From: Candidatus Iainarchaeum sp.
Lineage (GTDB): Archaea > Iainarchaeota > Iainarchaeia > Iainarchaeales > JAAZKV01
Assembly: GCA_026397015.1 (NCBI GenBank)
Contig: JAPLVR010000003.1
Coordinates: 32,001 to 96,000 of the forward strand
Reading direction: 5' to 3'
Length of the DNA stretch: 64,000 nucleotides
The position numbers were made by a program, and so were the translations under genes. Shown here piece after piece: positions 41,548-63,075 of this stretch. The first letter of the stretch is position 1. The number at the start of each line of letters is the position of its first letter. The notes beneath the pieces were generated by a model. That model was not told the DNA's origin, ran no database searches, and worked only from the letters and a program-made list of their open reading frames with translations.

Positions 41548-42969
41548 ATGCTAAGGGAAGATAGCGCGCTTAAAGGGGCTGATTTTGAGTCAAAAAAAAT
41601 CGAATATTCGAAGAAGATTAGTGAGTGCTACAGCGGGGAAATAGTTTCACGCAGGGACGAACTTTTTCTCCTATTGAACCTTCCTGAAATGAGTGAAAAG
41701 GAAAAAAATTTGTCCGGAAAAATCCTTGAAGAATTGAAACAATCCAGCGCAAAAATAGAATCAAAAAAGGACGTTTATTTTTTTCTAAAAAACTATTGCA
41801 TGGAAAATCTCATCCTCCTCAATAGGACGCAAAGGGAAAAAATAATTCTTCTGCTGGAATGGGAATCGCTCGGGCAAAGCATACTGACCCCTCTGCTAAG
41901 GGACCCGGATTTTGAGGAAATAATAATCAACGGGCCGAATAAGGAAGTGATGGTTTATCATTCCACATTCGGGTGGCTTAAAACAAATGTTCTTTTCGGG
42001 TCTGAGGAAAAGATAAAGAGCATCGTGAATAAGATGGCGGCACCGCTCGGAAGGCAGCTTAGTTTTCATACGCCGATGGTGAATGCGGTTTTGGCAGACG
42101 GTTCAAGGCTGAATGCCTCAATTTATCCGATTGCGTTCACGGGAATAAACGTGACAATAAGAAAATTCAAGGAAAATCCGTTGACGCCGCTGAATATAAT
42201 AAATTCTGAAACAATAAGCCGCGATGCGATGGCTTTTTTATGGTTGGCGATGCAAACCTCATCCTCGATTCTCATTTGCGGGAACACCGGTTCGGGAAAA
42301 ACAACGACCCTTAATTCTCTTTTCTGTTTTCTTCCGCCGAAGGAGAGAATAATAATTGTGGAAGAAACGCCGGAGCTGGCGCCGCCCCAGCACCACTTAA
42401 TAAAAATGAATACCGCGGAAAAACTGAAAATCGGTTTGGAGAAACTGATTGAAAACACTTTCAGGATGCGGCCGGACAGAGTAATTGTGGGCGAGATAAG
42501 GGGGCGGGAGGAAGCGAAAGCTTTTATCGACACGATGCTTGCCGGACAGGCAAGGGGAAGCTACTGCACCTTTCACGCCGAGAGCGCGAAAGAAGCGATT
42601 GAAAGGCTGCTTTCATTCGGCATAGAGGAAAGGGCGCTGGCTTCCCTTGATTTGATAATTGTGCAAAAAAGGCAGGAAAAAATAGGAAAAAACGGGGCAA
42701 GGAAAGAGGAAAGAAAAGTTACGGAAATAAGCGAGGTTGCAATCGGAGAAACAGGAACACAGCTTAACACCCTTTACTCTTTTTCCTATGAAAAAAACCG
42801 GCTTGAAAAGAAAAACGATTCAAAAAGGGTTTTAGAAAAAATAAAACGCACGTTTTCAACAAGCGAAAGTGGAGTGAAAAAACTGCTAAAAGAAAAAGAA
42901 AGGCTCCTGAAAAATCTGCATCCTGAAACGCCCTTTAAGGAATTTTTTGAAATAATTGGAAGGGAATGA
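41548..42969 (+). CDS. CpaF/TadA (VirB11-like) type IV pilus assembly ATPase
   Basis: Walker A GNTGSGKTT, RMRPDRVIVGEIRG (Walker B), TFHAES. Confidence 0.95.
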   Translation: MLREDSALKGADFESKKIEYSKKISECYSGEIVSRRDELFLLLNLPEMSEKEKNLSGKILEELKQSSAKIESKKDVYFFLKNYCMENLILLNRTQREKIILLLEWESLGQSILTPLLRDPDFEEIIINGPNKEVMVYHSTFGWLKTNVLFGSEEKIKSIVNKMAAPLGRQLSFHTPMVNAVLADGSRLNASIYPIAFTGINVTIRKFKENPLTPLNIINSETISRDAMAFLWLAMQTSSSILICGNTGSGKTTTLNSLFCFLPPKERIIIVEETPELAPPQHHLIKMNTAEKLKIGLEKLIENTFRMRPDRVIVGEIRGREEAKAFIDTMLAGQARGSYCTFHAESAKEAIERLLSFGIEERALASLDLIIVQKRQEKIGKNGARKEERKVTEISEVAIGETGTQLNTLYSFSYEKNRLEKKNDSKRVLEKIKRTFSTSESGVKKLLKEKERLLKNLHPETPFKEFFEIIGRE

Positions 42970-42983
42970 AAAATTGAAAAGGA

Positions 42984-43802
42984 ATGAGAAAAATGAAATC
43001 TCCTTTGGAAAAAATATTGAAAAAAAATGCGGCGATGAGAGAAAGGGAGCTGGAAGCGCACAAATCGCGGAGCATGCGGCTCAGCATTTTCATCAGCCTG
43101 TTTATATGGCTCATAATAGGCGTGGTTGAAAAAAATATTCTAAAATCCGGAGCAATCGCGCTGATTGCCGCAATCTTGCTGTTTGCAACATTTCTCTCTC
43201 TTCCTGTTTTGAAGAAAAGGGCGCACGCAAAAAAAGTCGAGGCAGAACTTCCCCTTTTTCTCCTTCAACTCTCAACCGAAATAAAAATAGGAAAAAGCTT
43301 TCTGGAAGCGCTCAAGGACTGCACGGCACAAAACCTGAATGAGAAAAGAACGAGAAAAAATCTCTGCGTTGCGGATGAATTCGGAAAAGTTGTCGCAGAC
43401 ACGGAAAAGGGAGCAACATTCCAGGAAGCATTGAACAATATGAACAACAGGATGGAATCGCTTACGATAAGGCGGGCGTGCAGCAGCCTTTCAAACCTTC
43501 ACCTGCAGGGAAAAAAGGATGTTGATGGATTGAAAAAGCTCGCGCAGGAACTCCTGTTGAAGCAAAAAATCGAGAGCCGCGAATTTTCAAGCAAAATGGT
43601 TGTTTACGCGCTGGTTTTTGTGGCGGTTTCGGCGATTGTGCCGGCGATGTTCCAAAGCTTCATACTTATCGGAAGTTATTTCATGAAAATTTCCTTCACC
43701 CCCGAACAGGTTTTTGCAATAATTGTGGTTTTTTTCCCTGCGGTCGACATTGCAATACTTTCAATAATAAACTCAAAGACGCCCGCATTTCTTCGACAAT
43801 AA
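42984..43802 (+). CDS. Type II secretion system F (TadB-like) platform protein
   Basis: EAELPLFL, GKSFLEAL, EF..V..D...GATFQEAL, TM helices, directly after the ATPase. Confidence 0.88.
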   Translation: MRKMKSPLEKILKKNAAMRERELEAHKSRSMRLSIFISLFIWLIIGVVEKNILKSGAIALIAAILLFATFLSLPVLKKRAHAKKVEAELPLFLLQLSTEIKIGKSFLEALKDCTAQNLNEKRTRKNLCVADEFGKVVADTEKGATFQEALNNMNNRMESLTIRRACSSLSNLHLQGKKDVDGLKKLAQELLLKQKIESREFSSKMVVYALVFVAVSAIVPAMFQSFILIGSYFMKISFTPEQVFAIIVVFFPAVDIAILSIINSKTPAFLRQ

Positions 43803-43833
43803 TTCCGAGACTCAAAAAGTCTGAGGCTTAAAA

Positions 43834-44766
43834 ATGGACGCGAATGTTTTTTTCAAACGGGCGATTTTATTTTTCTTCGAAAAAAACAGGGTTAAAAATT
43901 TTGAAGAAAAACTTTTCATGAATAATTCAAAAATGAAAAGCCTCACGGGATTTATCGAATACTCTTTGGTTGAAGGAATATTCCTGATGATTGCGGCGAT
44001 GGCGCTGGGCGCAAAATTTTTCGGCACAGCGAGCATTGCGCTCGGCCCATTTGCTTTTTTTCTGCCATTTGCTTTGAACTACCTGTTTCAGGACATAAAA
44101 TTTGAAAAAAGAAAACTTGCGAAGGAAAAGCTGCTTCCTGATTTGCTGCTGGAGGCGAGCGTCTTCTGCGACGAAACATCCTTTATTGGAACAATAAAAC
44201 GCCTTGCAAAACAGGATTTTCCGCTGCTAAGAGAAGATTTTGAACGCGCGGCAGCGGAAATATCCAACGGGGCGAGCGCCGAAGAAGCGCTTGAAAGAAT
44301 GAAGGCGCTTAACAAGAGCGAAGCATATTCAAGAGTGATAGGGCTTTTGCTGCAAGGGTACCATAGCGGAGCAGAAATGTCAAAAATTTTCAAGGAAACG
44401 GCAGAGGACCTGCTTGAAACGCACGCGATACTGCGCGAACGCCAGGCTGTGATGCTGGTAAACAAGTACACGCTCATACTCGCTTCAGGAATAATTGTCC
44501 CCGCTGTAATCGGTTTGATTGTCGGGCTCGTTTCAGGATTGAATTTTGATTCCATGGGCGAACTGAGCCTCGGGCTCTCGATTGAAACCAGGAAAAAAAT
44601 GCTCTCATTCGCGACGCTCGGGACAACAATTTACCTCGGCGAATATGCCCTGCTGAGCTCTTTTTTCCTGGCGCTTCAGGAGGGAAACAAAAAACAGTTC
44701 TGGGTTTATGCGCTCATACTTTTGCCGACAGCGCTGGGAGTCTTTTATTTTGCAAAAGGCTTGTGA
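43834..44766 (+). CDS. Type II secretion system F (TadC-like) platform protein
   Basis: EKLLPDLL, EISNGASAEEAL, GYHSGAEMS and C-terminal TMs. Confidence 0.88.
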   Translation: MDANVFFKRAILFFFEKNRVKNFEEKLFMNNSKMKSLTGFIEYSLVEGIFLMIAAMALGAKFFGTASIALGPFAFFLPFALNYLFQDIKFEKRKLAKEKLLPDLLLEASVFCDETSFIGTIKRLAKQDFPLLREDFERAAAEISNGASAEEALERMKALNKSEAYSRVIGLLLQGYHSGAEMSKIFKETAEDLLETHAILRERQAVMLVNKYTLILASGIIVPAVIGLIVGLVSGLNFDSMGELSLGLSIETRKKMLSFATLGTTIYLGEYALLSSFFLALQEGNKKQFWVYALILLPTALGVFYFAKGL

Positions 44767-44882
44767 AATACCCTTGTGAAATGATAAAACTCGCTGTCGG
44801 TGCTGTCGCCACCACCGCCGCCGCAAAAGATTTATTAAGAACCTAAATCATTCTAATATTGCAAAAAATCTGGGTGAAAAAA

Positions 44883-45638
44883 TTGAAGGCAAAAAAAAAT
44901 CTTTGCGGCTGCAATTGCGGCGAAAGAGCTGAGTTTGTTGAAACGAAAAATGTTTCGCTGAAAGGGTACACACTGCTCGAAGGTTTCCCTGGGCTCGGGC
45001 TCGCTGGAACGATAGGCGCGAAATATATCGTGGAAAAATTAAAATTTGAGCAAATAGGCTACGTCGATTCAAATCATTTTGCGCCTGTAGTAAGGATAGA
45101 GTCGGGCGTGCCGATGCACCCCGTTAGAATTTATGCAAGCAAAAAAAATAAGCTGGTGGTAATCCTTTCAGAACAGATAATTCAAAAAGAGATGATGGCG
45201 CCGATTGCAAGGGCGCTTGTCGAGTGGATAAAAAACAAGGGAATAAAAAGAGTAATTTCAACTTCCGGAATAAAAACTGAAGAGCCGACAAAAGTTTATG
45301 CGTTTGCAAGCAACGAAGCGTCAAAAAAAACCATAAAAAAAGGCGAGATAAAAATAATAAAAAACGGGATAACTTCGGGCGTCACGGCGCTGATAATGCT
45401 TTACCTGAAAGACAACAACATTGACGCTTTCTGCATTCTCGGCAACACAAAAACCAGCACGGATTACAACGCGGCGGTCGAACTGATAAAAACAATAAGC
45501 AAATTAACAAATTTGAAAATAGATGTTGAACCGCTGTCGAGGGAAGCGAAAGTTGTAAGGGAGTCGCTTGTTGAGCACATCAAAATGGCCGAGGAAAAAT
45601 CGGGCTCTGGCGACGACCAGGCGCCGATGTACATTTAA
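44883..45638 (+). CDS. PAC2-family proteasome assembly chaperone
   Basis: EGFPGLGLAGTIG, HPVRIY, GITSGVTAL, IDVEPL, C-terminal PMYI. Confidence 0.9.
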   Translation: MKAKKNLCGCNCGERAEFVETKNVSLKGYTLLEGFPGLGLAGTIGAKYIVEKLKFEQIGYVDSNHFAPVVRIESGVPMHPVRIYASKKNKLVVILSEQIIQKEMMAPIARALVEWIKNKGIKRVISTSGIKTEEPTKVYAFASNEASKKTIKKGEIKIIKNGITSGVTALIMLYLKDNNIDAFCILGNTKTSTDYNAAVELIKTISKLTNLKIDVEPLSREAKVVRESLVEHIKMAEEKSGSGDDQAPMYI

Positions 45639-45774
45639 CCTTTAATCAAACCTGAGTTTTTGAAATTGAACCGCCTTTATTCGACGAAAAATTAAAAAAA
45701 CAATTGCTGCGTTCGCCGTATGCATTTCTTCTTACCGAAAAGTTTATTTAGCCAAAAGCACTTCCATGTAGCAA

Positions 45775-46203
45775 ATGAAGCCGAAAGTATATTGGGCTGT
45801 TGCGCTAATAGTGCTGGTGCTGTTTGCCTTATTTAATTTTTTGAACGCAGAGACAAATATACCCATCGACGAATTGGTATTATTAAGCTATATCGAACTA
45901 ATAATTCTTGTAATTGGCATTGCCCTTTTTTCTTTGAAAAATAAGTTTGGATTTTACTTGGCTTTACTTTTTGTAGCATGCCACATAACTGTTACTGCTT
46001 TTGCTTTGACAACATTCTTTTTTAACCTTCCAGACATTTTGGGGGTTGTACAACTGTATCATTCAGGCCCAGTTTCAGAATGGATTTTTTCTACTCTTGC
46101 GCCGCTTGTTTCCTTGAACATAGGAGGTAGCATAATCCTGCTCGTGACCACATTAAAGAGCAAATCTGTTTTTGGTATAAAAAAGATTCTCCATTTTAAA
46201 TAA
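45775..46203 (+). CDS. Hypothetical 4-TM membrane protein
   Basis: Four hydrophobic segments and its own TTTATTTA promoter. Confidence 0.7.
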   Translation: MKPKVYWAVALIVLVLFALFNFLNAETNIPIDELVLLSYIELIILVIGIALFSLKNKFGFYLALLFVACHITVTAFALTTFFFNLPDILGVVQLYHSGPVSEWIFSTLAPLVSLNIGGSIILLVTTLKSKSVFGIKKILHFK

Positions 46204-46293
46204 ACAAACCAAAAAAACTTACAAATCCAAAAAAATTTTAGACATTACAAAAGAAGCCATTTTCACTAACTAAAATTTGGAAACTGCAATTAA

Positions 46294-49200
46294 TTAGACT
46301 TTTCTGTATTTTTTTGTTCTTCTGCCGGCGCCGGCCTTTCTCGTGAATATGAACGAAACCAGCAGGAATACTGAAACGAAAATTATTAGGCCTGCCGCCG
46401 TTCCCGGAACGGAAGGAATATTCATTCCGGAACCCGTTGAAGAGCCGACATTGAATGTCATCGGGTTCTTTCCCTCTCCTGTTATTTTTCCGTCTGTTCC
46501 GCTGAAATAAACTCCGTTGTCCTTGAAACCCTGATTTAGAGGAATTATGTTTCCATTTTCAGGGTACCACTTGCCCGTATTTGGGTCATACCAAAATGAG
46601 CCGTTTGTGCCCTGGGCTGAGAGCAGAGTTTCCGGAGTGCCGTTGTTGTAAGTTAACTTCGGAACGCCATTCTCGGCATCGAATTTCAAAGTATGGCTTT
46701 TTCCGTCAACAGTATCAAACACGAGCGTTCCATCATCCAGTTGTTTTATGCCATCAACGCCGCCGACGATTTCGGAATCCTCAAGGATTTTTCCTGTTGC
46801 CTTATCCCTTCTCCTGAAATAATCTTTACATTCGCCGGACACCGGGTCAACCTTTGAGTAGAATTCGTAAATGTATTTGTCGGTAGTGAATTGTGTGAAA
46901 GGGCCGAGTTTGTCCATTGATAGGTTGAAGTTGCTTACTTTCATCTGGCCCAAATCGTCGTTAGGGTAAGCCAGCGCTTTAAAATCTATTGCGGGAACAG
47001 GGCATTGCGTTTCCGGGTCGATGACCGATGTTTTCGTTGCTGTCAACCCCGCAACGTCTTTTGAATCAAGAACAGAGTCCTTGTGCTGTCTCAGCCAAAC
47101 AATCAGCTCGTTTGTTTCAGGCTTCAGGACAATTACTCCGTGTTCGAAATTCATTGAAACGAATTTTCCAATCTGGCTTAATTGTCCGTTGGTAGAAAGT
47201 TTTGTCTGCCAAAATCCGTCTATCAAAATTTTTGAATCGGAGCCCTGTGCTGCTTGTCTCGGCGCCAATCCTTCAAGGCTAATCTGCCCGTTTTCTATAA
47301 AAATTCCGCTGTAGTCAGCGGTTTTCAAACTCTCAAGTTTTCCGAACACCTGCGTGAGCTCGTCGCCCGAAAAAGGGATTCCAACCTGTTCCTCGACAGC
47401 TTTTTGGATACAGCTAAGCACATCCGCATAAGTTACTTTCACTTCGCCGTTTATATTTATTTCAAATACTATGGCATCCGTTTCTGGCGCGCCGACTCTT
47501 GTAACGGTTTTTGGCACGACGATTCCAGGAATCCTGGCGTCGGGCGGATTTGTGGCAAGCCTTACATTATCCGCCTTTGTTGAGGGAACAATAACTTTTC
47601 CGTTGTATGTTATTTCCCCTGTTTTGTTGTCGATTCCCACTGCATTGTTCCCATCAGTATAAACCAGTTTTCCTTCAGTCGGGTACCCTGCAGCCATCGT
47701 AAAATCTTTATACCAAATGTAAAATACGTCCTTCCCAAGAAGGCTTCCCTTGTTCGGCGGAGCAAGCAGCATGGACGCCTGCAACAGGTTTGCCTTTTTC
47801 GCCTGTTCGGAAAAGTTTGCAAACTGGTTTTTCAGCTTGTCCATCGCCTGTGAAACAAGATTTCCGCCCGATGCAGCATCGGTTGATTTTTTTGAAACGG
47901 CGTCGTTAATATTTTCGGCAAATTTTGAAACTGTATCCGTAAGTGTTTCATTTGAAATGAGTTCTTTTGTTTTTCCGGCAACATATTTTTCTGTTGGCGG
48001 CATATAAAAATGAATGTAGTACCCTTCGGCATCGTCTACGCAGTCTTTCAATTTTGGCGCTAACGCCAGCTGCTGAATTCCCGACATTAAAAGCCCGGCG
48101 CCGGGATGTATGAAGTATGCAAGATTTTCCGCGCCCGCAAGAACCCCGCCCGAAGCAGTGCCAAACATCCCCAAATTCGCCCAGCCGATTCCGATTTCCC
48201 TCAATTTTTGGTCGCAGGTTTCGCTCTTTGTCCTGCCGTCAACCAAATTTATCTGACCGCCTTCTATATCTCCGCTCTGCCCTTTTATGTTTGAGTGATG
48301 GGTGTATGCAACTATGGTTGAACCGTCCTTTGATTTTTGTTCCGAATCAACAGCTTCAACCAAAAATGCCTGTAATTTTTCAGGCGCCCTAAAGCCGCCG
48401 AACATCAAATAATCACCTTCGGACTGCATGTTTGAGACACAATCGACGCAGTTCTCGTTGTGGGAGAAGAAAGCGAGGTCCTTTACTGAGTCGCGCATTA
48501 TTGCGTTCTTGCCGAACAAACTGGCGCCAAGCCCGCCTTCACCGGAGATGGACGAAACTATTTGGCTTGTCGTCTTGTTATTTGCGGCAAGCTTATCAAC
48601 AGCCATGCTCTTCCAAGGCAGCCAGTTTATTACTTTTGCAAACATATCCCCCTGGTCGGAGCCTTCATTCGCGAAAAAGTCGATGAACGAATCCCTATAA
48701 ATTTTATCTACTCCCTGAACAATATCCATTTTTGTCCATGTGTCGGGAAGCATGTATGCTGAAATATCTTCGTACCCGAAACCGCGTTTCGCATTCCAAT
48801 AAACTATGGGAAGCAGCGTTCCCTTATAGAGCCCTCCCGTGAGAGGCTGTGTGAAATATTCTGTCAGCATGTTTTCCTGCGCGGCAAATTGTTTGTCCAG
48901 CCAGCTCGCGGACCTGCGCGGCTTGAAATTCTTTTCCGCCATCGCGTTCATAAGCTCCTTCATGTTGTTTTCCGCTGCGTTGTAACGCTTCATCATTCTG
49001 CCTTGCGCAATACTGTTTGCGAATTGTTCAGGCGTGAGCTTCTGAGCCGGCACATATCCAGCGCCATAAACCGTAATTGAAGGGGGAAGCTGCGGATTGG
49101 TTGCAAGAGTTTTAAGTGAATCTTCGGTCAGTGGGTATAATGTCCCATCATTTAGTCTTATTGCGGTTTGATTTGCACCCTGTGTTTTGACCCATCTTTC

Positions 49201-51558: not shown

Positions 51559-51727
51559 CGTTCTCAAAAAAATTAATGCATATAGTAATATATAAGCGTT
51601 CCTTTGAGAGCCTGCGCTGTTTCAATTCGGGCGGATTTGCCGCGGCTCCGAAGGAAAAAACCAACAAAAAGTAATAAATACTCGCGCGCCCAAATAGTAT
51701 CAAAGTTTATTGTCCCAAAACAATTGA

Positions 51728-53331: not shown

Positions 53332-54120
53332 TTACTCATAATCAGTTTTAGGAATCAGCGCACAATTGAAATCGGCTTTGTTGGCTGCTGAATCCAAGCC
53401 CCACAAATTGTTTACGTCCTTTGAAATCCACAAATCCAGCGACATTATGTAATTAGCGCCAACTCCGGTGACTGCGCTTAGGTCTTTGCTCGTTCCCTTG
53501 TCCAGAAAAACTTTGCTTGTTGCAGAATCAACCTTTCCAACGTATGGAAAAACCTTGTCTTTTAGTATGCCTGGCGAAGCTGGAATGCAATAATACATTC
53601 TTCTCTCGCTCCCGACAATATTTCCGGAACTATCTTTCTCGCATTCAGTTCCGGACTTCTTGCATTCATGAACCCCCATAAGCAGAAATAAAAATTTCTG
53701 CGAATCTTCCTGAAACAAATAAAATGCATAATCGACGGAGTGCTCGAAAGGTTTCATTACGGAATGAACAGTATTGGCAATCGCCTTTCTTGTGGCGCTG
53801 TTCAGCGACGGGTTCTGATTGCCGCTGCTCTCCGCGTAATCCTCCTTTATCATGGCCAACAAATAATCATATTGGGGGTTATCGCCGGTTAGCGAATAGA
53901 TGCTTGTACCGTCGCGCATCACATTTACATAAGCAATTACTTTCAGCGTGTCCATCGCAAAATCGCCGGAATAAAAAGAATTTATCTGCTCTTCGACTGT
54001 CGCACCGTAATTAATCAAAAAATAAAATAAGAGCGTGCAAATCATCGAAACTATTGCAAGAAAAAATAAGGAATCCGTAAGAGCAGCCTGCCCGCCCTCA
54101 TCCCTTCCAAAATAAGTCAT
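53332..54120 (-). CDS. Minor pilin-like protein (class III signal peptide)
   Basis: GG|QAALTDSLFFLAIV hydrophobic helix after a GQ cleavage motif. ATGA-coupled to the upstream gene. Confidence 0.75.
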   Translation of the reverse strand: MTYFGRDEGGQAALTDSLFFLAIVSMICTLLFYFLINYGATVEEQINSFYSGDFAMDTLKVIAYVNVMRDGTSIYSLTGDNPQYDYLLAMIKEDYAESSGNQNPSLNSATRKAIANTVHSVMKPFEHSVDYAFYLFQEDSQKFLFLLMGVHECKKSGTECEKDSSGNIVGSERRMYYCIPASPGILKDKVFPYVGKVDSATSKVFLDKGTSKDLSAVTGVGANYIMSLDLWISKDVNNLWGLDSAANKADFNCALIPKTDYE

Positions 54121-54743
54121 TCCCAAACCACCATCGCCATTATCGCGGGCGCAATCACGCTGTGATTTCCAATGATTTTAGTCTGAACCGCAACAGGATA
54201 AAAACGGACTATGTAATTTTTTTGGGAACAGCTGAATTTCTTGGAGCCAAATTTTACATAATCACAAAAATATCTGCACTTCGGATCCGCGCCCGGCCCT
54301 ACGACGCTGCTTTCACAACCCGCATATTCCGAATCCACAAGAAGGTCTTCTTCGTTGAAAGATTCGTCTGTTCCGCTTTCACAATTTATTATGTTTGAAA
54401 GCTCGTCACCGGGGGAATTTCCTTTTATAAGATAAATGCCGACCATGAAATTGTACGGGCTTTGCTGAACCCTTATCCTGTCACACCTCGTTTTGAACTG
54501 GCTCAAACTCAGGAGGAGCGAATCGCCTTTCAACTGTCTTGAAATCGAAATAAGATTTATTTTCTCGTTAAGAATTTCGTTTTTTGTTTCATAGTTGTTG
54601 AGCGTCGCGGAAAAAACCGTGAAAAAAAGCAGAAGTGCGAAAACAATCGGAATCAGCGAAGGAAGGTCATCGCCTATCGCACCGATAAACCCCCTGCACG
54701 GGGAAAAAAATTTTTTAAAAAAACCTCTTTCCAATTTTTCCAT
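54117..54743 (-). CDS. Minor pilin-like protein (class III-like signal)
   Basis: CRG|FIGAIGDDLPSLIPIVFALLLFF followed by a Cys-containing globular domain. Confidence 0.7.
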   Translation of the reverse strand: MEKLERGFFKKFFSPCRGFIGAIGDDLPSLIPIVFALLLFFTVFSATLNNYETKNEILNEKINLISISRQLKGDSLLLSLSQFKTRCDRIRVQQSPYNFMVGIYLIKGNSPGDELSNIINCESGTDESFNEEDLLVDSEYAGCESSVVGPGADPKCRYFCDYVKFGSKKFSCSQKNYIVRFYPVAVQTKIIGNHSVIAPAIMAMVVWE

Positions 54744-54800: not shown

Positions 54801-54898
54801 CTTTTTTATTCCATCCATTCCCTATTTTTTTATCCAACCAACCGCCTATTTTTTGTTTGTTTCACCTTTCATCTTTTTTATCCCACCAGGCCCCTATC
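54801..54898. repeat. Three degenerate ~25-bp copies of the 3' end of the 54878-55612 gene
   Basis: Minus strand: ATAGGGGCCTGGTGGGATAAAAAA / ATAGGCGGTTGGTTGGATAAAAAA / ATAGGGAATGGATGGAATAAAAAA. Confidence 0.55.
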
Positions 54899-55612
54899 AA
54901 TGCATTTCTGAAAATTATTAGCTTTCTGCACAGCTTCGTCTTCAAGCAGGGAATTTACAAAACATCCCGAAATCGGGGTGTTGGGTGCAGGATTTTGTCC
55001 GCTAGAATTTATTTTATAGCAGCCGACTTTCAGCACAGCTAACTCGCAATCCATGTTTATCGAGCTGGTGCAAGGGATTATATAAATGGTTTTATTTTTG
55101 TTTGAAACTTCTTTTACTATTGCATACGCATCCATCGGTATTTCCGCACGCGAAAAAATTGTTATTGAATCAAGGCCGTAATCCGCCGCGCTGAGATTTC
55201 TTCTTTCGGTGGAAACATCAGGGCCCACAAGAATTATTTCCGCGTCAGTCACAACACTTTGGGAGGCAATAACGGTTTTACTCTTCCTTTTGTTGATTGA
55301 CAAAACAAGCTCGTTTTTTTTGGGAACATTTGCAGAGCCCTCAAAAATCTGCACCTTTGTAAAATTGATTTCATAAAGAATGCTTTCCTTCAAACCGTAC
55401 CTTAAATAATCGGGGATTCCTACTGATTTGGTCGAGCACATCCCTTCCTGTTCAATTTGTTGCTGGATTGTTAATGCGTTCTTCTGAAGAAGATTTGTGG
55501 CCGCAACTGTCATGTCCCTGTACTCGATGAAGTTCATGAATGCCAGCGCTATTACGAAAATGCCCGTGGCAAAAAGAAGCATATTCATTTTGCTTAAAAT
55601 AAAGCTGAGCAT
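54878..55612 (-). CDS. Pilin-like protein with an uncleaved N-terminal TM helix
   Basis: MLSFILSKMNMLLFATGIFVIALAF followed by an amphipathic helix and a Cys-rich C-terminus. Lies within the pilin run. Confidence 0.7.
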   Translation of the reverse strand: MLSFILSKMNMLLFATGIFVIALAFMNFIEYRDMTVAATNLLQKNALTIQQQIEQEGMCSTKSVGIPDYLRYGLKESILYEINFTKVQIFEGSANVPKKNELVLSINKRKSKTVIASQSVVTDAEIILVGPDVSTERRNLSAADYGLDSITIFSRAEIPMDAYAIVKEVSNKNKTIYIIPCTSSINMDCELAVLKVGCYKINSSGQNPAPNTPISGCFVNSLLEDEAVQKANNFQKCIDRGLVG

Positions 55613-55618: not shown

Positions 55619-56248
55619 TCACGGCCTGTAATAAATGCACACTCTCGGAGTTTCTTCCCCCACAGTTGAAACATTCTTGAAAATGTAAGTGCCTGATTTA
55701 AGCAGCGGCTGCCCCTCGTTCACAATAGTTGAGCCCGGACGAATGCTTGTAAGCTCGGGAGACACAAGTGTATATGGAATGCCGCCTTCGGTAACAACTG
55801 GGCAGGGATCTCCCAAGTTAGTTTCAAAACTTGTGAATTCCGGAATGTTGATGCATTTTCTTATCAGGCCGTCCGGAATGTCCGCCGTGTAAAAAACCAT
55901 TATGTGACAACGCTCGGATGGTGTTCCACAAACCGCGTTGCAATTGGCTGAACTGCTCGCGCTGGCCTTCTCGACCTGAATTCCGATTGTGGCTTTGTTT
56001 TCATTGAAACATTTGTCAAGGGTGAACGCAAATTTGCTGTTGCTTCTGTAATCGGCGGTGTTGTGAAGGTTTGAAATAAATTTTTCAATCTCCTTATCGT
56101 TATTATTTTTGCACACCTGCATTTGAATCTGCCCAAGAAGGGATGTTCCAATAATTACCACAAATCCCATTATTACAACCGCGACAAGGAGTTCAAAGGG
56201 CGCGCTCACCTGACCGCGCTGGCTTTTTTTCTTAGAGCAGTTTTTCAA
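55619..56248 (-). CDS. Type IV pilin-like protein (class III signal peptide)
   Basis: KKKSQRG|QVSAPFELLVAVVIMGFVVIIG. Confidence 0.85.
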   Translation of the reverse strand: MKNCSKKKSQRGQVSAPFELLVAVVIMGFVVIIGTSLLGQIQMQVCKNNNDKEIEKFISNLHNTADYRSNSKFAFTLDKCFNENKATIGIQVEKASASSSANCNAVCGTPSERCHIMVFYTADIPDGLIRKCINIPEFTSFETNLGDPCPVVTEGGIPYTLVSPELTSIRPGSTIVNEGQPLLKSGTYIFKNVSTVGEETPRVCIYYRP

Positions 56249-56256: not shown

Positions 56257-56442
56257 CTAACTTGAATTTGTGCCCGTATTTGTAGTCTTTGGAATATTTT
56301 TCTGCGCCTGCTGGAACATCGGCTTTGCAATTAAAATCAGGAGCAGCGCGACTATCGCGAAAACAAGTATCAAATAAACGGCGCCAAAATCCGAGGAAGC
56401 GCCTTCCTCGCGGAACAATTCCTTAATCCTCTTGAAGCCCAT
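56257..56442 (-). CDS. Small Flp-like pilin (61 aa)
   Basis: LFREEG|ASSDFGAVYLILVFAIVALLLIL and a very short tail. Confidence 0.7.
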   Translation of the reverse strand: MGFKRIKELFREEGASSDFGAVYLILVFAIVALLLILIAKPMFQQAQKNIPKTTNTGTNSS

Positions 56443-56501: not shown

Positions 56502-57005
56502 TTAAGCGCGCTTTATCATTACTAAACAACACGGCTGATGTTCTGATTCTGTGCAAAGTTCAATAGGGTCCACACTCGTTGCAGTGCCCAAAACCTCTAA
56601 ACTTTCTTTCAAAGAAGCCCCCGTAGTTTCACAGTTTACAAGGGCTTTAAATTCCATTTCTGTTACACCAAGATACTTGAAATAAGACCAATCGGCACCA
56701 ACAATTTTAGCTTCAATTAACGCTTCTCCAACCGACTTATCAACATCAAAAACTATCGAGTGTTGATCGGTGGGTGCAAATTGTTTACTTGTAAGACTCA
56801 CATCTTTGTCTAACCAAAAATTTTGGCTGGTTTGCGAACCGCCAGTTTTAGCAGCTTCCAATGCATTTGATATTGATTTTTTTGCTTCCATTCCTAGTTT
56901 ATCTCCGCCAGTAATCATCGGCAGCAAAACAAAAAGAATAGCAACCGCTACAATCGCGGCTATTAACAATTCGAACACACTAAAAGCTTGCCCTTTGTTG
57001 TTCAT
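56502..57005 (-). CDS. Type IV pilin (probable major pilin, paralog 1)
   Basis: MNNKG|QAFSVFELLIAAIVAVAILFVL and C-terminal QPCC..KRA. Confidence 0.88.
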   Translation of the reverse strand: MNNKGQAFSVFELLIAAIVAVAILFVLLPMITGGDKLGMEAKKSISNALEAAKTGGSQTSQNFWLDKDVSLTSKQFAPTDQHSIVFDVDKSVGEALIEAKIVGADWSYFKYLGVTEMEFKALVNCETTGASLKESLEVLGTATSVDPIELCTESEHQPCCLVMIKRA

Positions 57006-57015
57006 CCAAACACCT

Positions 57016-57546
57016 TTATGCCCTCTTCAATATCACAATGCAACATGGCTGGTAATCGCCTTCGGTGCAAAGATCGACCGGCGTGCCAGGCGCGTAGTAG
57101 TCAAGCCCTGAACTAACAAGTGGTTCGAGAGTTTCTTCAAGCGACAGTCCGGTTGACTCACAGTAAACAGTTGCTTTTGCTTTCATTTGAACAGCCTGCT
57201 TGTAAACGAATTGTGAAAATCCATTTGAAAAAGTGTCGGGTATGTCTATTATCGCATCATCTATAGAGGTAATTTTTGCAAAAATAACCGAATGAGGATC
57301 GAAGCCTTCCTTTTGGAATTGCTTGCTTGTCAATGTCTCATCTTTTTTCAACGCGAAATCCTGGCTGGTTTGCGAACCACCGTTCTTTACCGCGTTCAAA
57401 GTGTTCGCAATGTTGTCCCTCGCAGAACCCGTAGGGGTAATAAGATTGTTAATAATCGGCAATAAAACGAATAAAATGGCAACCGCAATTATTGCGGCAA
57501 TCATCAGCTCAAAAACACTAAATGCCTGTCCTCTCTGGTTCAACAA
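57016..57546 (-). CDS. Type IV pilin (probable major pilin, paralog 2)
   Basis: NQRG|QAFSVFELMIAAIIAVAILFVL. Shares GGSQTSQ, LTSKQF and QPCC..KRA with paralog 1. Confidence 0.88.
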   Translation of the reverse strand: MLNQRGQAFSVFELMIAAIIAVAILFVLLPIINNLITPTGSARDNIANTLNAVKNGGSQTSQDFALKKDETLTSKQFQKEGFDPHSVIFAKITSIDDAIIDIPDTFSNGFSQFVYKQAVQMKAKATVYCESTGLSLEETLEPLVSSGLDYYAPGTPVDLCTEGDYQPCCIVILKRA

Positions 57547-57587: not shown

Positions 57588-57658
57588 ACCTTGCTTTCAA
57601 CTCTTTGGATGGCAATAACGACACCTTGCCTTCAACTTTTTGGGCGGACAATAACGAC
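57588..57658. repeat. Tandem 35/36-bp direct repeat abutting the pilin promoter
   Basis: ACCTTGCTTTCAACTCTTTGGATGG-CAATAACGAC / ACCTTGCCTTCAACTTTTTGGGCGGACAATAACGAC (31/36 identical). The minus-strand TTTAAATA box lies immediately downstream. Confidence 0.8.
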
Positions 57659-57673
57659 TCATTCAAAAAATGT

Positions 57674-58231
57674 TTAACCGCAGTAGCCGTCAACGGTGTC
57701 GGTTTCTTTTTTCAATGCCTTTCCAAAGGAAATTCTGCAGCAGATTTCAACGCACCCCTGCGGCTGGCAGATATCGGAACCGTCAACGCTCACCATATCC
57801 TGACCGCAACCTGTCTGGCATGGAACGTCAGGATGATATGGTTTGCAAAGCGCATAAACTTCTGCTTCTACCGGTTGCTCAAATGTGATGGAAGACTTAT
57901 CATCGGAAATTTTTGCACCTGCCAAATTGGATTCGAAGTTGAAAGAAGCGGGGTCTTTTCCGGTGAGGGCTGAAAGGGCAGTTGACGTGTAACCCTTTCC
58001 GCTCGGAAAAAAAAGCGCCCGCGAAGATTCTATTACTTCTCCGCTCGGAGTATTGATTGCGGAGAGCACGAGCTCGTTAAATTCCTTGGTTGAAATGCTT
58101 GTTCTCATTTGCTGGAACTGATAAATTGCGGCAACAATTATTACGAGGACAACGAACATTATTATTGAGTCAACCATAAGTCTGAAAACGGCGCCGGCCT
58201 GCGCTTTTTCTTCAAAAAACAATTCCCTCAT
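57674..58231 (-). CDS. Type IV pilin-like protein with Cys-rich C-terminus
   Basis: EEKA|QAGAVFRLMVDSIIMFVVLVII and C-terminal C...ICC like the two paralogous pilins. Confidence 0.85.
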   Translation of the reverse strand: MRELFFEEKAQAGAVFRLMVDSIIMFVVLVIIVAAIYQFQQMRTSISTKEFNELVLSAINTPSGEVIESSRALFFPSGKGYTSTALSALTGKDPASFNFESNLAGAKISDDKSSITFEQPVEAEVYALCKPYHPDVPCQTGCGQDMVSVDGSDICQPQGCVEICCRISFGKALKKETDTVDGYCG

Positions 58232-58266
58232 AAAAGCACCGACCATTGTTTCCAAATTTTCTCCAT

Positions 58267-60699
58267 TCAGCCCTGCGTGAGTATCATCGAAATCATCGTA
58301 TTCCCTGCGTAAACCGTTGCAACGAAAACGAGCACCGCGATTGGCAGCGCCTTTGCCAGATTTATCTTGAAAAGCAAATCGTTGTCCTCCTGTATTTTTG
58401 TGGTAAAGTAAATCATTATTATCACAATTTCGGCGACATAAATTCCTATTATCAGGAGGAATGCCAGCGGCGTTGCAAAGGTTTTGAAAACCGCGGGCTT
58501 AATGTCAAACATCGCCCCGATATTTGTGAGCGAGGTAACGTTGCTGCCCGCAACATTTGTAGTAGCATCCGTGGCGATGTTTGGCGCAACCGGATCCGAT
58601 ACCAAACCCGCAAGAGTATTAAGCACAACTTTTTGAAGCGCAACAGTTATTCCAAGAACGATTGGCGCAATAAAAATCGCCATGGTCTGCATGGTCGTTG
58701 TAACTTCCGAAACAAGGTCCTTCAAACCCTTATTTACCTTGTCAATGTTGTCCATCTGCAATGAGAGGCTCATCAGCGTACGCGAAGCGACTTCAACACC
58801 GAGTGAAACCGAATCAACAAGCAGGCGCATCGCAGTATTCAGTGTGTCGGAAGGAATGCCTTTCATCGCGCCGTAAACAGGGCTGAATACCGCGGTTTCA
58901 AGCGGCATCCCCATAAGTTCAATATTTTCAAGCGTTTTTGCAAAAATCCTTTCGCTCACTTTTAAATTAGGAAGAAAATTTTTTGCATGCTTCAGGGCAT
59001 TTTCAACCGGCTTATTTTCACCCATTCTCGAAGCGATGAGATACATGGATTCCTTGAATTCGTCCTCCATCTGCATTATTTCCAGCTGGGCCTTCCTTTT
59101 GTAAATATTTCTGTAATAGAGGAGGAAGGACGCGCCGCACGCAATTGTAATCATTGCGCCGAGCCAAAAAACGTATTTGGTAGGATCGTTTTTCGGATTG
59201 CTTGTTAATGTCAGGAAGCTTTTCGCGACCATCGCATCCGCCATATCATCTTCGAATCCGTTTTGTTTCAGCTGGGCAAAATATGCTCCCTTGGTAGAAT
59301 CCGAAATATCGAAAAAATAAAGGTCGATTACTTTTTTGCCGTAATAATCAGGCGACTTGTTCTCCGCCGCCAAAACCTCTTCAAGCGTTTTATCGGCGGG
59401 AATTATCTGAAAGTTCGTTCCCTCTTCGTTTGTTGATAAAAATAAAAATTTTGGCGGAAGCCCCTGCGTCGAAACAAAAAAAGAAATTCCCAACCCGATT
59501 ACAAGAATTAAAACAAAAACCAATCTTGTGTCGATTGAGCCGCCGCTTGTTCTCATGTGCCACTTCTTCGGCAGGCCCATATAGTCGTCATTTATTATGG
59601 GAGGCTCGTATGTCGGCGGCCTTCGCTGAACAACCCCTTTCGCAAAACTGAATGCAACAAAAGGAAGGACTCCGCAAAAAGCTATGAGCAAAATTTCCGG
59701 GCGCGAAAAGGGCTGTCCGGAAAAAGCCGAGCCGACTGGCAGAATTATTATGAGCAAAAGCGGAAGCAATACGCCCATATAGAAAAGCATTATTGAAGGC
59801 TGGTTGAGGCTTCGCGCGTAATCCTCCATTTTGCCTTTTACACTGTCCAAAACCTGCGACATTGTTTTGTCCAGCAGCTGGTATCTGCGCGATTCGCTCG
59901 GCTCCATTACGGAGGCGCGTATCCTCATCAGTGCCTCCTTCAACTCGGAAGAATATTTCCCCCAATTGTAAGCCAACGCATCAAGTCCTTCGCTAACGGA
60001 ACCATAAACCCCAATTTGAAAATCCCACAGCACTTTCTTGAAATCTTTTGCGACTTTTCCCCTTCCGTGTTTTGCGGAAAACTCAATTGATTTTTCCAGA
60101 TTTGGGACGAGCTTCATTGACATTATCATATAGCCGACAATCTGGGGAACGTATGTGAGCGCCTTGTTTTTTTCCGCGTCCGCAATCACAATCGGATAAT
60201 TATAAATGTAATAAATTATCAACCCCGTAAAGCCGAAAAGAACCCCTGCAAGCATCAAAAAAGTTGTGTTAGTATCGCCGCCGAACATTTCGAAAAGCGG
60301 TTGAGAGTATCCTATTATTTGGTAGGTATTGTACTCGGGACTTATTTGGAACCCGACGCCGAAAAGATACGCTAAAACCAGCACAACAATTATCGGAAAA
60401 AGCGCTGTTGTAAAAGTTCCTTTTATTCCCGCCGCAAATTCGCCGGCAGTGAGTCGCCATCCCAAAAAATTTATTGCCTCCTGGTGCTTTTCCGAAAACA
60501 ATGCCCCTTTTCCAAGGGAAGGATTTTTTTTGTACAACTGCTTGCAGTATTTCACAAAATCGTTGTCCTGCTCAACAACGGATTTGCCGCCCTCATCGTC
60601 GAAGGAAATGTCGCCGAGAGAAGTTATTTTGCTGTAAAGCTGGCCGGGGCTGGCCTCCGGCCCGTATTTATCCCTCAACTCTTTTTTTTTCGACGCCAT
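58267..60699 (-). CDS. Large (810 aa) ArlJ/TadC-like pilus platform protein with two T2SSF-like halves
   Basis: LVPNLEKSIEF...GSVSEGL and MGENKPVENAL...MGMPLETA repeats, multiple TMs, directly downstream of the ATPase. Confidence 0.85.
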   Translation of the reverse strand: MASKKKELRDKYGPEASPGQLYSKITSLGDISFDDEGGKSVVEQDNDFVKYCKQLYKKNPSLGKGALFSEKHQEAINFLGWRLTAGEFAAGIKGTFTTALFPIIVVLVLAYLFGVGFQISPEYNTYQIIGYSQPLFEMFGGDTNTTFLMLAGVLFGFTGLIIYYIYNYPIVIADAEKNKALTYVPQIVGYMIMSMKLVPNLEKSIEFSAKHGRGKVAKDFKKVLWDFQIGVYGSVSEGLDALAYNWGKYSSELKEALMRIRASVMEPSESRRYQLLDKTMSQVLDSVKGKMEDYARSLNQPSIMLFYMGVLLPLLLIIILPVGSAFSGQPFSRPEILLIAFCGVLPFVAFSFAKGVVQRRPPTYEPPIINDDYMGLPKKWHMRTSGGSIDTRLVFVLILVIGLGISFFVSTQGLPPKFLFLSTNEEGTNFQIIPADKTLEEVLAAENKSPDYYGKKVIDLYFFDISDSTKGAYFAQLKQNGFEDDMADAMVAKSFLTLTSNPKNDPTKYVFWLGAMITIACGASFLLYYRNIYKRKAQLEIMQMEDEFKESMYLIASRMGENKPVENALKHAKNFLPNLKVSERIFAKTLENIELMGMPLETAVFSPVYGAMKGIPSDTLNTAMRLLVDSVSLGVEVASRTLMSLSLQMDNIDKVNKGLKDLVSEVTTTMQTMAIFIAPIVLGITVALQKVVLNTLAGLVSDPVAPNIATDATTNVAGSNVTSLTNIGAMFDIKPAVFKTFATPLAFLLIIGIYVAEIVIIMIYFTTKIQEDNDLLFKINLAKALPIAVLVFVATVYAGNTMISMILTQG

Positions 60700-60768
60700 T
60701 CAAAAACCCGAAATAATTTTATTTTATTTTTTTTATTTTTTTTTTTGCAAAAATAATTTTTTGTTTAT

Positions 60769-63075
60769 TTATTCTTCTTCTTTTTTCTTTCCTTCTTCTT
60801 TTTCGCTGCTGAACCGCGGAATCGCAACAGTATTTACCCAGTTCTTCCACTGGCCGAGCAATTGCTCGTAGTTCGCCTTGCCTTCTTCCTCAATCATAAT
60901 TTCTTTCATAAGAAGCAATTTGTTGGAACAGAGAGAAGTGCACTCGGCTTCAAGCAGGCTCGGAAGCTTCAATTTGTTTTTTTGCTCCACGAGGAAGAGC
61001 TTTGCATTCCCCCTAAGCCTTATGTCTTCCCAGATTTCATTGACCGTCATGCCCGAAGTTTTTTGGACCTTCTGCAGCAACTCGCTTTCCTTTAAATTGT
61101 CTTCCATTAATTCGAGAGAATCTTTTGCGGCGTCATAGCTCATCAGAGAAAGCAGCCCGCCTTCGCGCTCGGGGTCATCGTTCCAGTGCTTCTTTATTTC
61201 GGTAATTTCAACAACACGCCTGACTCTTTGGGAGCTTCCCTTAAATCTTATCGGCCTTGCAACGACAACCAAATCCGTCGCCTTAAAGGAAGTGGTCGGA
61301 ACTTCCAAATCATTTACAACACGGTCCCAAACGGAGTAAGCGGAATCCGCGTGAATGGTTCCGAGAACAACATTTCCGGCGGCGCCGATTCTCATTGCTT
61401 CGTACAAAACTTTTGCTTCTTTGGACCTTACTTCTCCGATTATCAGCGCGGAATCACCCAGACGCAGCGCCGTTCTCAGCGCTTCTTCCGGCGCAACTTC
61501 TGTTTCGGTTTTTGAAACGCTAATCGGGCTCCTTGTTTTCAGGCGCTGAATATTGAAGCCGACTTCTTTCATGTAATCAATCGGAAGTTCAAGTGTGTCT
61601 TCCTGAACTATTATTCTCGAGTTCATCGGGATTTCAAGCATGACTGCACTGAGAAGGGAAGTTTTTCCCGAACCCCTTGAACCGGCAATAAGTGTTGTCG
61701 CCTGCATATCGGTAAAAAAACTAAGCAACCCTGCCGCAAGAGGGTTGATGTAATTTACATCTACAAATTGTTCAAGCGTCCACGGAGTTATTTTGTGCAA
61801 TCTGAAAGCGAAGGCGGAACCGGAAGGAGAAAGAGGCGGGCCGATTAAAGCGACTCTCGAATCCAAATCAGGAAGGTCGAAATCGAGGACAGGATGCGCC
61901 TCGTCAAAAGGCCTGGCGGACATTGCCCTCATTTTTGAAATCAGCGAATTTGCCTCGTTTTCCGTAAAAGTAACATTTGTCTGGCACTGGCCATAATCCG
62001 CATGAACGACATAAATCGGCTTTCCCCCGATTGGCGCGTCAATATAAATGTCGGTGAGCTTCCTGTCATTCAAAAGAACTTCAAGTATCCCATAACCTAC
62101 CGTGTAGCGCGCAACGACCTGGCCGAGCGCAACCATTTCCTCCGGCGTCAAACGAACTTTATAATATTCCGCGATTTCCTTTATTGTGGATTCGTACATT
62201 CTCTCAAAATATCTGCGCGAAGTCGCAACTGTGCTCAGCGAAGTTTTTCCGGGCTTGTAAGTCGCAACTATTTCACGCGTCTTGCTTAAAACAAAATACT
62301 TGTCGGGCGCAAGCGAATACTCCGGCGGATTTACGAAATAAATTTTTTCAAGTTTATCAGGCTTGGAAAAAATTTGAACTGTTGTGTCCTTTACACCATA
62401 CTCGTCAAGAATTTCGAGGTTCTCCATTCCGGCGAAAGAAAGTTTTGAACCGATGAAACTCGGCTTTATTTCCGCCTCAAAAATTCCTTTGTAAATTACT
62501 TTCGTATCCGGCATTTCCGCCAATTCCGTAAGCAATTTTTTTGCCTTCTGCACAAGCACCGTTTTGTCAAATTCCTGTTTTACCCGCACAAGCGAATCAA
62601 GGTAAGGCTCAGTGCACTCCGCGTATTCTTCGCTGCCCTGCTTTATTTTTTCCTGCTCTTTCCTTAATTCGTTCAACAATGTGAGGTAGGAAAGAATCGG
62701 GTCGAAATTAATGAGGTCATTTGCGATGCGCACCATCACCTGGTGCCTTTCCGGAAAGTACTGTTCGCATTCTTTTGCGGGCTTTCCCAAATGGGAGTAA
62801 CTCCAAACGCTTTCCACGTGAAACTTCTGGGAAAGGTTTGCGATTTCCATCAAAATTTTTGTCGGCTCTTCCTCATAAACCCTTTCATAAACCTCCGCCA
62901 AAACAATCCTGTCTGCCTCAACATCCTGAAGGGTTTTCAAAACGTGAAAGCGGCAGTGATGGTCATCCGCTATTGTCGCGGAATAAACACAATTCTTACA
63001 GTCGAAAATCAGCGCGCGCTTTCCGCCGATATCCCTCACGGTGTATTCTCCAACCTTAAAACCGCCAATCTTCAT
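60769..63075 (-). CDS. Type II/IV secretion (VirB11/ArlI-like) ATPase with a long Cys/His-rich N-terminal extension
   Basis: Walker A GSRGSGKTS, QEDTLE, LRLGDSALIIGEVRS, GTIHADS. N-terminal DCKNC...HHCRFH. Confidence 0.95.
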   Translation of the reverse strand: MKIGGFKVGEYTVRDIGGKRALIFDCKNCVYSATIADDHHCRFHVLKTLQDVEADRIVLAEVYERVYEEEPTKILMEIANLSQKFHVESVWSYSHLGKPAKECEQYFPERHQVMVRIANDLINFDPILSYLTLLNELRKEQEKIKQGSEEYAECTEPYLDSLVRVKQEFDKTVLVQKAKKLLTELAEMPDTKVIYKGIFEAEIKPSFIGSKLSFAGMENLEILDEYGVKDTTVQIFSKPDKLEKIYFVNPPEYSLAPDKYFVLSKTREIVATYKPGKTSLSTVATSRRYFERMYESTIKEIAEYYKVRLTPEEMVALGQVVARYTVGYGILEVLLNDRKLTDIYIDAPIGGKPIYVVHADYGQCQTNVTFTENEANSLISKMRAMSARPFDEAHPVLDFDLPDLDSRVALIGPPLSPSGSAFAFRLHKITPWTLEQFVDVNYINPLAAGLLSFFTDMQATTLIAGSRGSGKTSLLSAVMLEIPMNSRIIVQEDTLELPIDYMKEVGFNIQRLKTRSPISVSKTETEVAPEEALRTALRLGDSALIIGEVRSKEAKVLYEAMRIGAAGNVVLGTIHADSAYSVWDRVVNDLEVPTTSFKATDLVVVARPIRFKGSSQRVRRVVEITEIKKHWNDDPEREGGLLSLMSYDAAKDSLELMEDNLKESELLQKVQKTSGMTVNEIWEDIRLRGNAKLFLVEQKNKLKLPSLLEAECTSLCSNKLLLMKEIMIEEEGKANYEQLLGQWKNWVNTVAIPRFSSEKEEGKKKEEE

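Follow-up and report, generated by a model that had tools for sequence, protein, structure and literature searches.

Two of the type IV filament (T4F) systems described for archaea come closest to the locus analysed here, as far as the passages of PMC13705601 drawn on for this comparison describe them. System 1, to which the Epd pilus of Methanococcus maripaludis belongs, comprises an ATPase, two platform genes and a short pilin, and is reported there as the commonest T4F type in DPANN archaea. System 2, for example PilB3/PilC3 of Haloferax volcanii, is described mainly from Methanobacteriati and has an ATPase with an N-terminal extension, one platform gene, several pilins and large adhesin-like proteins. 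According to the same passages, ordered T4F loci are rare in DPANN genomes and their pilins are scattered. Excerpts from other papers describe pilin-less duplicated ATPase/TadC operons that may share pilins, and S-layer-like genes as frequent in type IV pilus (T4P) loci (PMC4858521), type IV pili in Diapherotrites reference genomes (PMC8561730), and DPANN 'dark matter' islands with T4P components and predicted pilins, in passages that do not name a two-motor arrangement (PMC6393860). Analysis of a 64,000-nucleotide window of the genome of Candidatus Iainarchaeum sp. (the whole stretch of DNA studied, C5:32001-96000 of genome G000; feature coordinates below are positions in this window unless a contig is given) concerns a block of 21.5 kb at 41548-63075. 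The source genome (0.9 Mb, 6 contigs, 85% complete) belongs to the Iainarchaeota (Diapherotrites) within DPANN. Across the phylum the block forms an ordered T4F cluster in which a System 2-like module with its pilin-like genes is combined with a pilin-less System 1-like motor and a giant protein of the archaeosortase-substrate type. We found no description of this two-motor block in the literature searched; the supplements of PMC13705601 (S10 Fig, S4-S5 Tables, DPANN loci) may show it. Our preferred reading, to which we give a probability of roughly 0.55, is that the block is the core cell-surface filament cluster of Iainarchaeota, a T4F system with two motor modules and with the giant protein as envelope partner.

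The locus is a T4F locus of a DPANN archaeon, as the initial annotation had it. Every gene described in that annotation, including the platform PLAT, the eight pilin-like genes and the giant gene, is present at its place in the list of open reading frames (ORFs) and their translations, and Pfam confirms the two ATPases and the TadB- and TadC-like proteins; homologs of the block proteins carry the source labels Diapherotrites, Iainarchaeum, ainarchaeum or Forterrea. ATP1 and ATP2 are both secretion ATPases of the VirB11/FlaI type with T2SSE (PF00437) matches at E=9.5e-19 and 8.8e-38, respectively. They share 27% identity, and the closest solved relatives of both are 2oap (Archaeoglobus GspE-like), CpaF and FlaI. 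T2SSF/ArlJ/TadC-type platform proteins are represented directly by the TadB-like and TadC-like proteins, which score above the Pfam cut-off, and indirectly by PLAT. Class III signal peptidases of the A24 family are encoded outside the window, with two PF01478 matches above cut-off, both on contig C1; none occurs in the window, which agrees with the earlier observation. The locus does not belong to an archaellum, and this part of the initial annotation stands as well: archaellin (PF01917) gave no match in the 85%-complete genome in a search that was positive in 5 of 14 genomes used as control and did not extend to ArlH, ArlF and ArlG, and for the FlaI equivalog NF058587, the nearest NCBIfam model for both, ATP1 and ATP2 reach 157 and 231 bits, where the cut-off is 550. 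With PilT-family models they score 41-44 bits (cut-off 319).

The ATP1/PLAT module resembles System 2 on architecture alone when it is set beside the published partial description: it combines an N-extended ATPase and a single platform gene with a large adhesin-like protein, several pilins, of which some but not all have a clear class III site, and extra membrane proteins. It differs from System 2 in that the block has a second, fixed motor and in the source labels of the homologs of the N-terminal domain of ATP1. For this domain 271 homologs were found, and the 120 listed ones are labelled Diapherotrites, Iainarchaeum or 'archaeon', apart from one labelled Micrarchaeota. ATP1 is 57-91% identical within the order. 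Inteins or LAGLIDADG domains (PF14528, PF14890) occur in 17 of the 120 listed ATP1 orthologs, which then reach about 1270 amino acids (e.g. P0188, P0191 and P0209); the ATP1 of the window itself is intein-free.

PLAT had been described as an 810-residue double-domain platform. A Pfam scan of PLAT at E<=0.01 gave no T2SSF match, but PF00482 is carried by 7 of its 120 listed close homologs. A search of 1.84 billion representatives gave 293 proteins at E<=1e-30, and many of the distant matches are 580-750 amino acids long, share 26-32% identity and align in two stretches. Ten of the distant homologs were sampled; five carry PF00482, in either the first or the second half, two of them above the Pfam cut-off. 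Profile comparison with hhalign showed that two separate regions of PLAT match the TadB profile weakly; the alignments of PLAT to the TadB and TadC profiles are weak overall. Because PF00482 occurs in close and distant homologs and hhalign finds two regions, PLAT is best read as a divergent, fused double T2SSF platform, and the earlier description is thereby supported. In other orders the protein is shorter (670-751 amino acids), with residues 411-505 unmatched. PLAT occurs in 38 of the 41 relatives and, within the phylum, in 195 of 215 genomes and in all 58 that are of high quality. A search beyond the phylum with a single distant homolog gave no confirmed relative. About 250 distant PLAT-like representatives probably lie outside the phylum, a placement made only because the phylum genomes have one strong match each.

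The genes from ATP1 through PLAT and the pilin-like genes to pil8 are co-directional with short gaps and may form one operon. All eight pilin-like proteins possess a single N-terminal hydrophobic segment, and in seven a conserved (K/R/E/G)(G/A)↓(Q/F/A) site precedes a hydrophobic helix, with cleavage predicted at the arrow. The N-terminal motifs, of the (K/R)G↓Q, KA↓Q and KG↓F types, are kept in orthologs from up to ten relatives. Seven of the eight proteins contain 4-9 cysteines, and pil2 and pil3 are 49% identical. Class III-like signals in seven genes, one Flp-sized product and one pair of paralogs had all been noted before, and the motifs of the orthologs, the length of pil4 and the pil2/pil3 identity bear this out. 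The pilin models PF04021 and PF07790 match none of the eight, while PF04021 finds 16 other places in the genome.

In the second motor, ATP2 and the TadB- and TadC-like genes are adjacent and co-directional, and the translated ATP2 sequence contains recognisable Walker A, Walker B and His-box motifs. Similar to System 1/Epd as partially described, this module has an ATPase and two separate platform genes, and a very short pilin without globular domain (pil4) occurs in the block among larger pilin-like genes. The initial annotation had set the whole locus apart from Epd pili; for the second motor this does not hold, given its System 1/Epd build and the Epd/Flp-like size of pil4. Unlike System 1, the split-platform motor has neither pilins of its own nor a dedicated peptidase alongside; no pilin or A24 gene was found beside ATP2. 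Epd-type pilins (arCOG06620 in System 1) and a dedicated peptidase are thus absent beside ATP2: pil4 has the size, but it lies with the other pilins in the putative operon of the fused-platform motor, and none of these pilins matches PF04021.

The genome contains five T2SSE ATPases, three with split T2SSF pairs and a fourth, ATP1, with PLAT. ATP2 shares 35-39% identity with the ATPases of the other two split-platform sets, both of which adjoin PF04021-type pilins. A regex scan placed the other class III proteins in clusters at C1:124965-136835 and C3:2711-5583, beside those two motors, and the ATP2 set is therefore the sole one of the three without neighbouring pilins. This confirms the earlier remark that the second TadA-TadB-TadC set lacks pilins. 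The two other sets are part of further complete T4F loci, at G000:C1:121073-136835 and G000:C3:2711-10070, each with an ATPase, a split platform and PF04021-type pilins; the locus on C1 includes pilins of 52 and 60 amino acids and an A24 peptidase. The fifth T2SSE ATPase stands alone at C1:144164-145783, which brings the inventory to four motor sets and one lone ATPase in 0.9 Mb.

The giant protein is present in 77 species loci, and none of its 64 homologs has an assigned name. Pfam and NCBIfam gave no match (Pfam also found no vWA domain), the ESM Atlas gave no usable one, and the family profile retrieved nothing below E=0.45 from the PDB sequences. The orthologs start with Sec-type signal peptides and end with (N/D)(I/L)PSxPE, a hydrophobic segment and a basic tail; the combination of PSxPE, transmembrane segment and basic tail occurs in 11 of 11 sequences compared and is near-invariant in an alignment of 65 rows. 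AlphaFold2 models of residues 471-1563 (mean pLDDT 75.9) and 1-1075 (mean pLDDT 72.5) predict long helices at about residues 300-500, mixed domains and an all-beta C-terminal region of about 430 residues with pLDDT >90 (model residues ~600-1035). In a Foldseek search with residues 471-1563, the top rows are beta-propeller chains (E 3.8e-5 to 1e-3) whose TM-scores do not exceed 0.14; the 50 rows listed do not include PilY1. Because of these TM-scores a beta-propeller fold was not assigned to the C-terminal region. Residues 1-1075 gave no Foldseek match at E<=0.001; rows with helical bundles, namely alpha-pore-forming toxin components, a type III secretion tip protein and a flagellar hook-associated protein, were dismissed as noise (E 0.48-2.3, probability <=0.14).

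With its C-terminal motif, transmembrane segment and basic tail, and with an enzyme of the family encoded in the genome, the giant protein has the features predicted for an exosortase/archaeosortase substrate. An exosortase/archaeosortase-family gene lies outside the window at G000:C5:96465-97391 (L135:465-1391), 1.4 kb beyond ATP1 and divergent from it. The encoded enzyme is short and divergent; the signature-domain model TIGR04178 is the only one whose threshold it passes (35.5 bits, cut-off 23), and its Pfam score of 16.6 bits is below cut-off. A homolog stands beside ATP1 in 9 of the 12 loci with flanking sequence, and in genus g3 the archaeosortase gene has relocated together with ATP1 and a gene for a 2984-residue protein. 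Since the gene both adjoins ATP1 and travels with it, its product is the likely handler of the PSxPE signal. The S-layer glycoprotein of Haloferax volcanii is processed by the archaeosortase ArtA at a PGF-CTERM signal, and similar to such glycoproteins the giant protein has a Sec signal, a large extracellular body, a motif with transmembrane segment and basic tail, and a family enzyme encoded nearby. It differs from the Haloferax case in that the motif is PSxPE instead of PGF and the enzyme is short and divergent. A second member of the exosortase/archaeosortase family is encoded at C5:301152-301736.

Beyond the archaeosortase gene, genes for proteins of 2984, 531 and 2461 amino acids follow in a row (G000:C5:98219-116396). 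The first (L135:2219-11173) has an N-terminal transmembrane segment and CarboxypepD_reg and Big_1-like (Ig-like) domains, the second (L135:11230-12825) a class III signal, and the third (L135:13011 onward) Ig-like domains similar to those of the first. Several relatives have the gene for the 2984-residue protein in a syntenic position, which shows that the block belongs to a more extensive island of surface-protein genes. Elsewhere in the genome, three tandem genes at G000:C3:25532-30146 (151, 569 and 779 amino acids) encode proteins ending with (I/V)PDSN, a transmembrane segment and a basic tail, a candidate second C-terminal sorting signal.

Linkage of these parts was surveyed in two ways. 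In ten relatives from six families, the proteins of the window were compared by tblastn with 30 kb around PLAT. The order ATP2-TadB-TadC-PAC2-giant-TM-TM-Zn ribbon-pil8..pil1-PLAT (TM, membrane protein) and the orientations are kept in nine of the ten, with ATP2 cut by the edge of the fetched stretch in two (G005 and G036); the tenth (G026) retains only the pilins and the giant gene. ATP1 adjoins PLAT in six of the ten. The same block occurs in three genomes of other orders (G214, G208 and G200). Scanning one genome per species with the giant family then gave the 77 loci. Where 5 kb or more of flanking sequence was available, 36 of 43 loci have the second motor downstream of the giant gene. 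Upstream of that gene, 32 of 40 loci carry two or more pilin-like genes. Of the 20 loci that extend 8 kb or more to both sides, 16 contain motor and pilin-like genes alike. Even the rearranged loci L111 and L121 keep all parts together. Conservation of the proteins and of their order in dozens of genomes goes beyond what chance would give. The initial annotation had called for such a survey of DPANN genomes and had named lack of linkage of the giant protein and the second motor in related genomes as part of what would count against it; the motors, pilins and giant gene proved to be linked in relatives, and that outcome did not occur. As a partial control, crude ORFs of the source genome were compared with 381 kb of another genome (G039) and the block. 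The block was the longest collinear run, with 11 ORFs over 21 kb, the next being 6 ORFs over 8.9 kb. The idea that the block is ordinary background synteny was rejected on this partial control and on the survey of 77 loci. Two giant-gene records are labelled 'Chloroflexi bacterium' (L113) and 'Thaumarchaeota archaeon' (L128); their gene content is that of the Iainarchaeota block, and these contigs are therefore probably mis-binned.

In the preferred reading, module 1 would be a single minus-strand operon encoding ATP1, an N-extended ATPase of the hexameric type, PLAT and a set of seven or eight prepilins. One of the two A24 peptidases, whose genes lie outside the block, would process these precursors, which would then be polymerised from the membrane into a multi-pilin, cysteine-rich filament, of which the Flp-sized pil4 or the pil2/pil3 type would be the likely bulk subunit and the larger proteins minor or tip pilins. 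Module 2 (ATP2, TadB and TadC), with its Epd/System 1 build, would most likely draw on these pilins too, as an additional motor for assembly or disassembly. The 1563-residue protein would be exported by the Sec pathway and held at the membrane by its PSxPE, transmembrane and basic signal, which the archaeosortase would probably handle, and would serve as an S-layer-like or adhesin-like envelope partner of the filament and not as a filament subunit.

That the parts form one machine, as the initial annotation proposed, is plausible at near even odds: linkage across the phylum speaks for it, and position does not prove joint function. Several findings weigh against a single system. The PAC2-family gene, with its proteasome-binder-type C-terminus, lies fixed between TadC and the giant gene across the phylum and is as constant as any other part, so position alone is no proof of joint membership. 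An ATP1 ortholog (57-78% identity) lies distant from PLAT in genus g3 (G006, G024 and G003; 128 kb away or on a separate contig) and in G026 (370 kb). What matches ATP2 best in G026, G215 and G216 are longer frames (580-626 amino acids) with 40-43% identity, and a true ATP2 ortholog may for that reason be absent. The second motor does not adjoin the giant gene in 7 of the 43 loci, and fewer than two pilin-like genes were detected upstream of it in 8 of the 40. The synteny control covers about 31% of one genome with crude ORF calls. Among the components themselves, the T2SSF score of PLAT is sub-threshold (17.2 bits, E=0.0024, against a Pfam cut-off of 25.2), Pfam and NCBIfam scans recognise none of the eight pilin-like proteins, and pil6 is the weakest pilin call because no clear cleavage site is evident.

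The block may, alternatively, hold two independent T4F systems and an unrelated envelope gene that are merely neighbours, an arrangement that we consider possible yet rather unlikely. ATP1/PLAT would build a pilus from the eight pilins, ATP2/TadB/TadC would serve class III proteins encoded elsewhere, for example the large QGTIEY-type ones, and the 1563-residue protein would be an S-layer or main envelope protein handled by the archaeosortase and tied functionally to neither motor. Each ATPase indeed has its own platform, whereas the bacterial PilB and PilT share PilC, and the genome encodes many other proteins with class III signals, some of 682-816 amino acids. The Sec signal and C-terminal sorting signal of the giant protein recall archaeosortase-handled S-layer glycoproteins, and an archaeosortase-family gene is adjacent. 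The probable passenger PAC2 suggests that unrelated genes can become fixed in the block, and ATP1 and the second motor are each unlinked or missing in some genomes. Mere neighbourhood is harder to reconcile with four alternating transcription units whose order is the same at every level from family to class although the proteins are only 25-45% identical, with the integrity of the two rearranged loci and with the block being the longest collinear run in the sampled control; the ATP2 set also stands alone among the three split-platform sets in having no adjacent pilins.

A machine for host contact or invasion, in which ATP1/PLAT would extend a pilus, ATP2/TadBC would retract or remodel it and the giant protein would be a PilY1-like, host-gripping adhesin, appears improbable to us. 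It draws on the same conserved linkage of motors, pilins and giant gene, and on a resemblance to the bacterial type IVa minor-pilin/PilY1 module, in which several minor-pilin-like genes likewise stand beside a giant secreted protein with a beta-rich C-terminus; the all-beta C-terminal 430 residues and the beta-propeller matches fit in with this. Similar to PilB and PilT, the two ATPases belong to the same superfamily. The giant protein, however, has a C-terminal membrane anchor, which PilY1 lacks, and its sequence does not match that of PilY1; with the low TM-scores and PilY1 absent from the listed rows a propeller fold is not established. Both ATPases have their own platform and neither is PilT-like, unlike the bacterial pair. 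In Saccharibacteria, T4P drive episymbiosis, according to the passages used of PMC9894109 and PMC11623550, but no host is known for the present lineage. Archaea have no known retraction ATPase, and the Aap pilus retracts without one, as stated in part of PMC13705601. The most far-reaching proposal would make the locus the first archaeal two-motor pilus, with ATP1/PLAT and ATP2/TadB/TadC extending and retracting or remodelling one filament from shared pilins and, together with the archaeosortase-anchored giant protein, forming an obligatory cell-contact organ of a whole DPANN phylum; we regard this as a long shot. A core filament cluster with two motor modules and an envelope partner remains our preferred reading.

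The remaining genes of the block are included in Table 1. The PAC2-family protein matches TIGR00161 at 2e-44, below the equivalog cut-off, and ends with Met-Tyr-X in 10 of 11 sequences compared and with Met-Phe-Ser in the remaining one. It has the PAC2 domain and the hydrophobic-Tyr-X ending of PAC2/Pba chaperones. Because of this domain and the Met-Tyr-X ending, which we take to be a proteasome-docking motif, the gene is probably a passenger; it could alternatively have an unexpected tie to the motor. The gene for the DUF192 protein adjoins ATP2 in the genomes of family f1, in G214 from another order and in many of the 77 loci. The 142-residue ORF had no tblastn match in the fetched locus of any relative and may be lineage-specific or not a gene. 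For the 193-residue membrane protein the sole family signal is a sub-threshold Acyl_transf_3 match. The 215-residue protein is conserved in position in most loci and has no family match above cut-off, and the 297-residue protein has a sub-threshold Zn_ribbon_3 match and a C-terminal part that is conserved into other orders.

Table 1. Genes of the filament block and its outer edge (positions in the window; aa, amino acids; ↓, predicted cleavage site)
Feature	Position	Strand	Description
DUF192/COG1430 protein	40868..41209	+	113 aa; PF02643 E=2.2e-16; possible associate at outer edge
ATP2	41548..42969	+	473 aa; minimal FlaI/GspE2/CpaF-type secretion ATPase
TadB-like	42984..43802	+	272 aa; single-domain platform; T2SSF 4.9e-8; four hydrophobic segments; conserved beside ATP2
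TadC-like	43834..44766	+	310 aa; single-domain platform; T2SSF 1.8e-10; position conserved
PAC2-family protein	44859..45638	+	259 aa; PF09754 2.6e-42; proteasome-assembly-chaperone-like
Membrane ORF	45775..46203	+	142 aa; four segments; no Pfam match
Giant protein	46294..50985	-	1563 aa; Sec-type signal, helical/mixed middle, beta-rich C-terminal region, PSxPE, transmembrane segment and basic tail
Membrane protein	50986..51567	-	193 aa; four segments; abuts giant ORF upstream, same direction; position conserved
Membrane protein	51728..52375	+	215 aa; three N-terminal membrane segments, charged tail
Zinc-ribbon protein	52423..53316	+	297 aa; acidic/basic low complexity, C-terminal double CxxC zinc-ribbon
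pil8	53332..54126	-	264 aa; N-terminus (K/R)G↓QAALTDS; position conserved
pil7	54117..54743	-	208 aa; N-terminus KG↓FIGPIGDDLPSL
pil6	54878..55612	-	244 aa; starts MLGF(I)LSKMN, nearly leaderless
pil5	55619..56248	-	209 aa; N-terminus (K/R)G↓Q.SAPFEL; 9 Cys
pil4	56257..56442	-	61 aa; Flp/Epd-sized, without globular domain; orthologs 51-66 aa
pil3	56502..57005	-	167 aa; KG↓QAFSVFEL; paralog of pil2
pil2	57016..57546	-	176 aa; RG↓QAFSVFEL
pil1	57674..58255	-	193 aa; KA↓QAGAVFRL; 8 Cys
PLAT	58267..60699	-	810 aa; fused platform; two divergent T2SSF-like repeats, variable central insert, nine hydrophobic segments
ATP1	60769..63075 or 63096	-	768 aa from Met8 (stored database protein), 775 aa from upstream TTG; secretion ATPase; conserved ~330-aa N-terminal extension

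No member of the Iainarchaeota has been cultured, and how they live is unsettled. PLAT is present in every high-quality genome of the phylum, ATP1 is conserved enough to host inteins, and the block takes up more than 2% of a 0.9-Mb genome; this marks the block as a core organ of these cells. With a complete and ordered cluster, the phylum is a clear exception to the reported rarity of ordered T4F loci and scattering of pilins in DPANN archaea. The block frames the questions of which pilin forms the filament, whether one pilin set serves both motors and whether the giant protein builds a lattice or acts as an adhesin, and it offers a natural case for filament dynamics in archaea, where no retraction ATPase is known.

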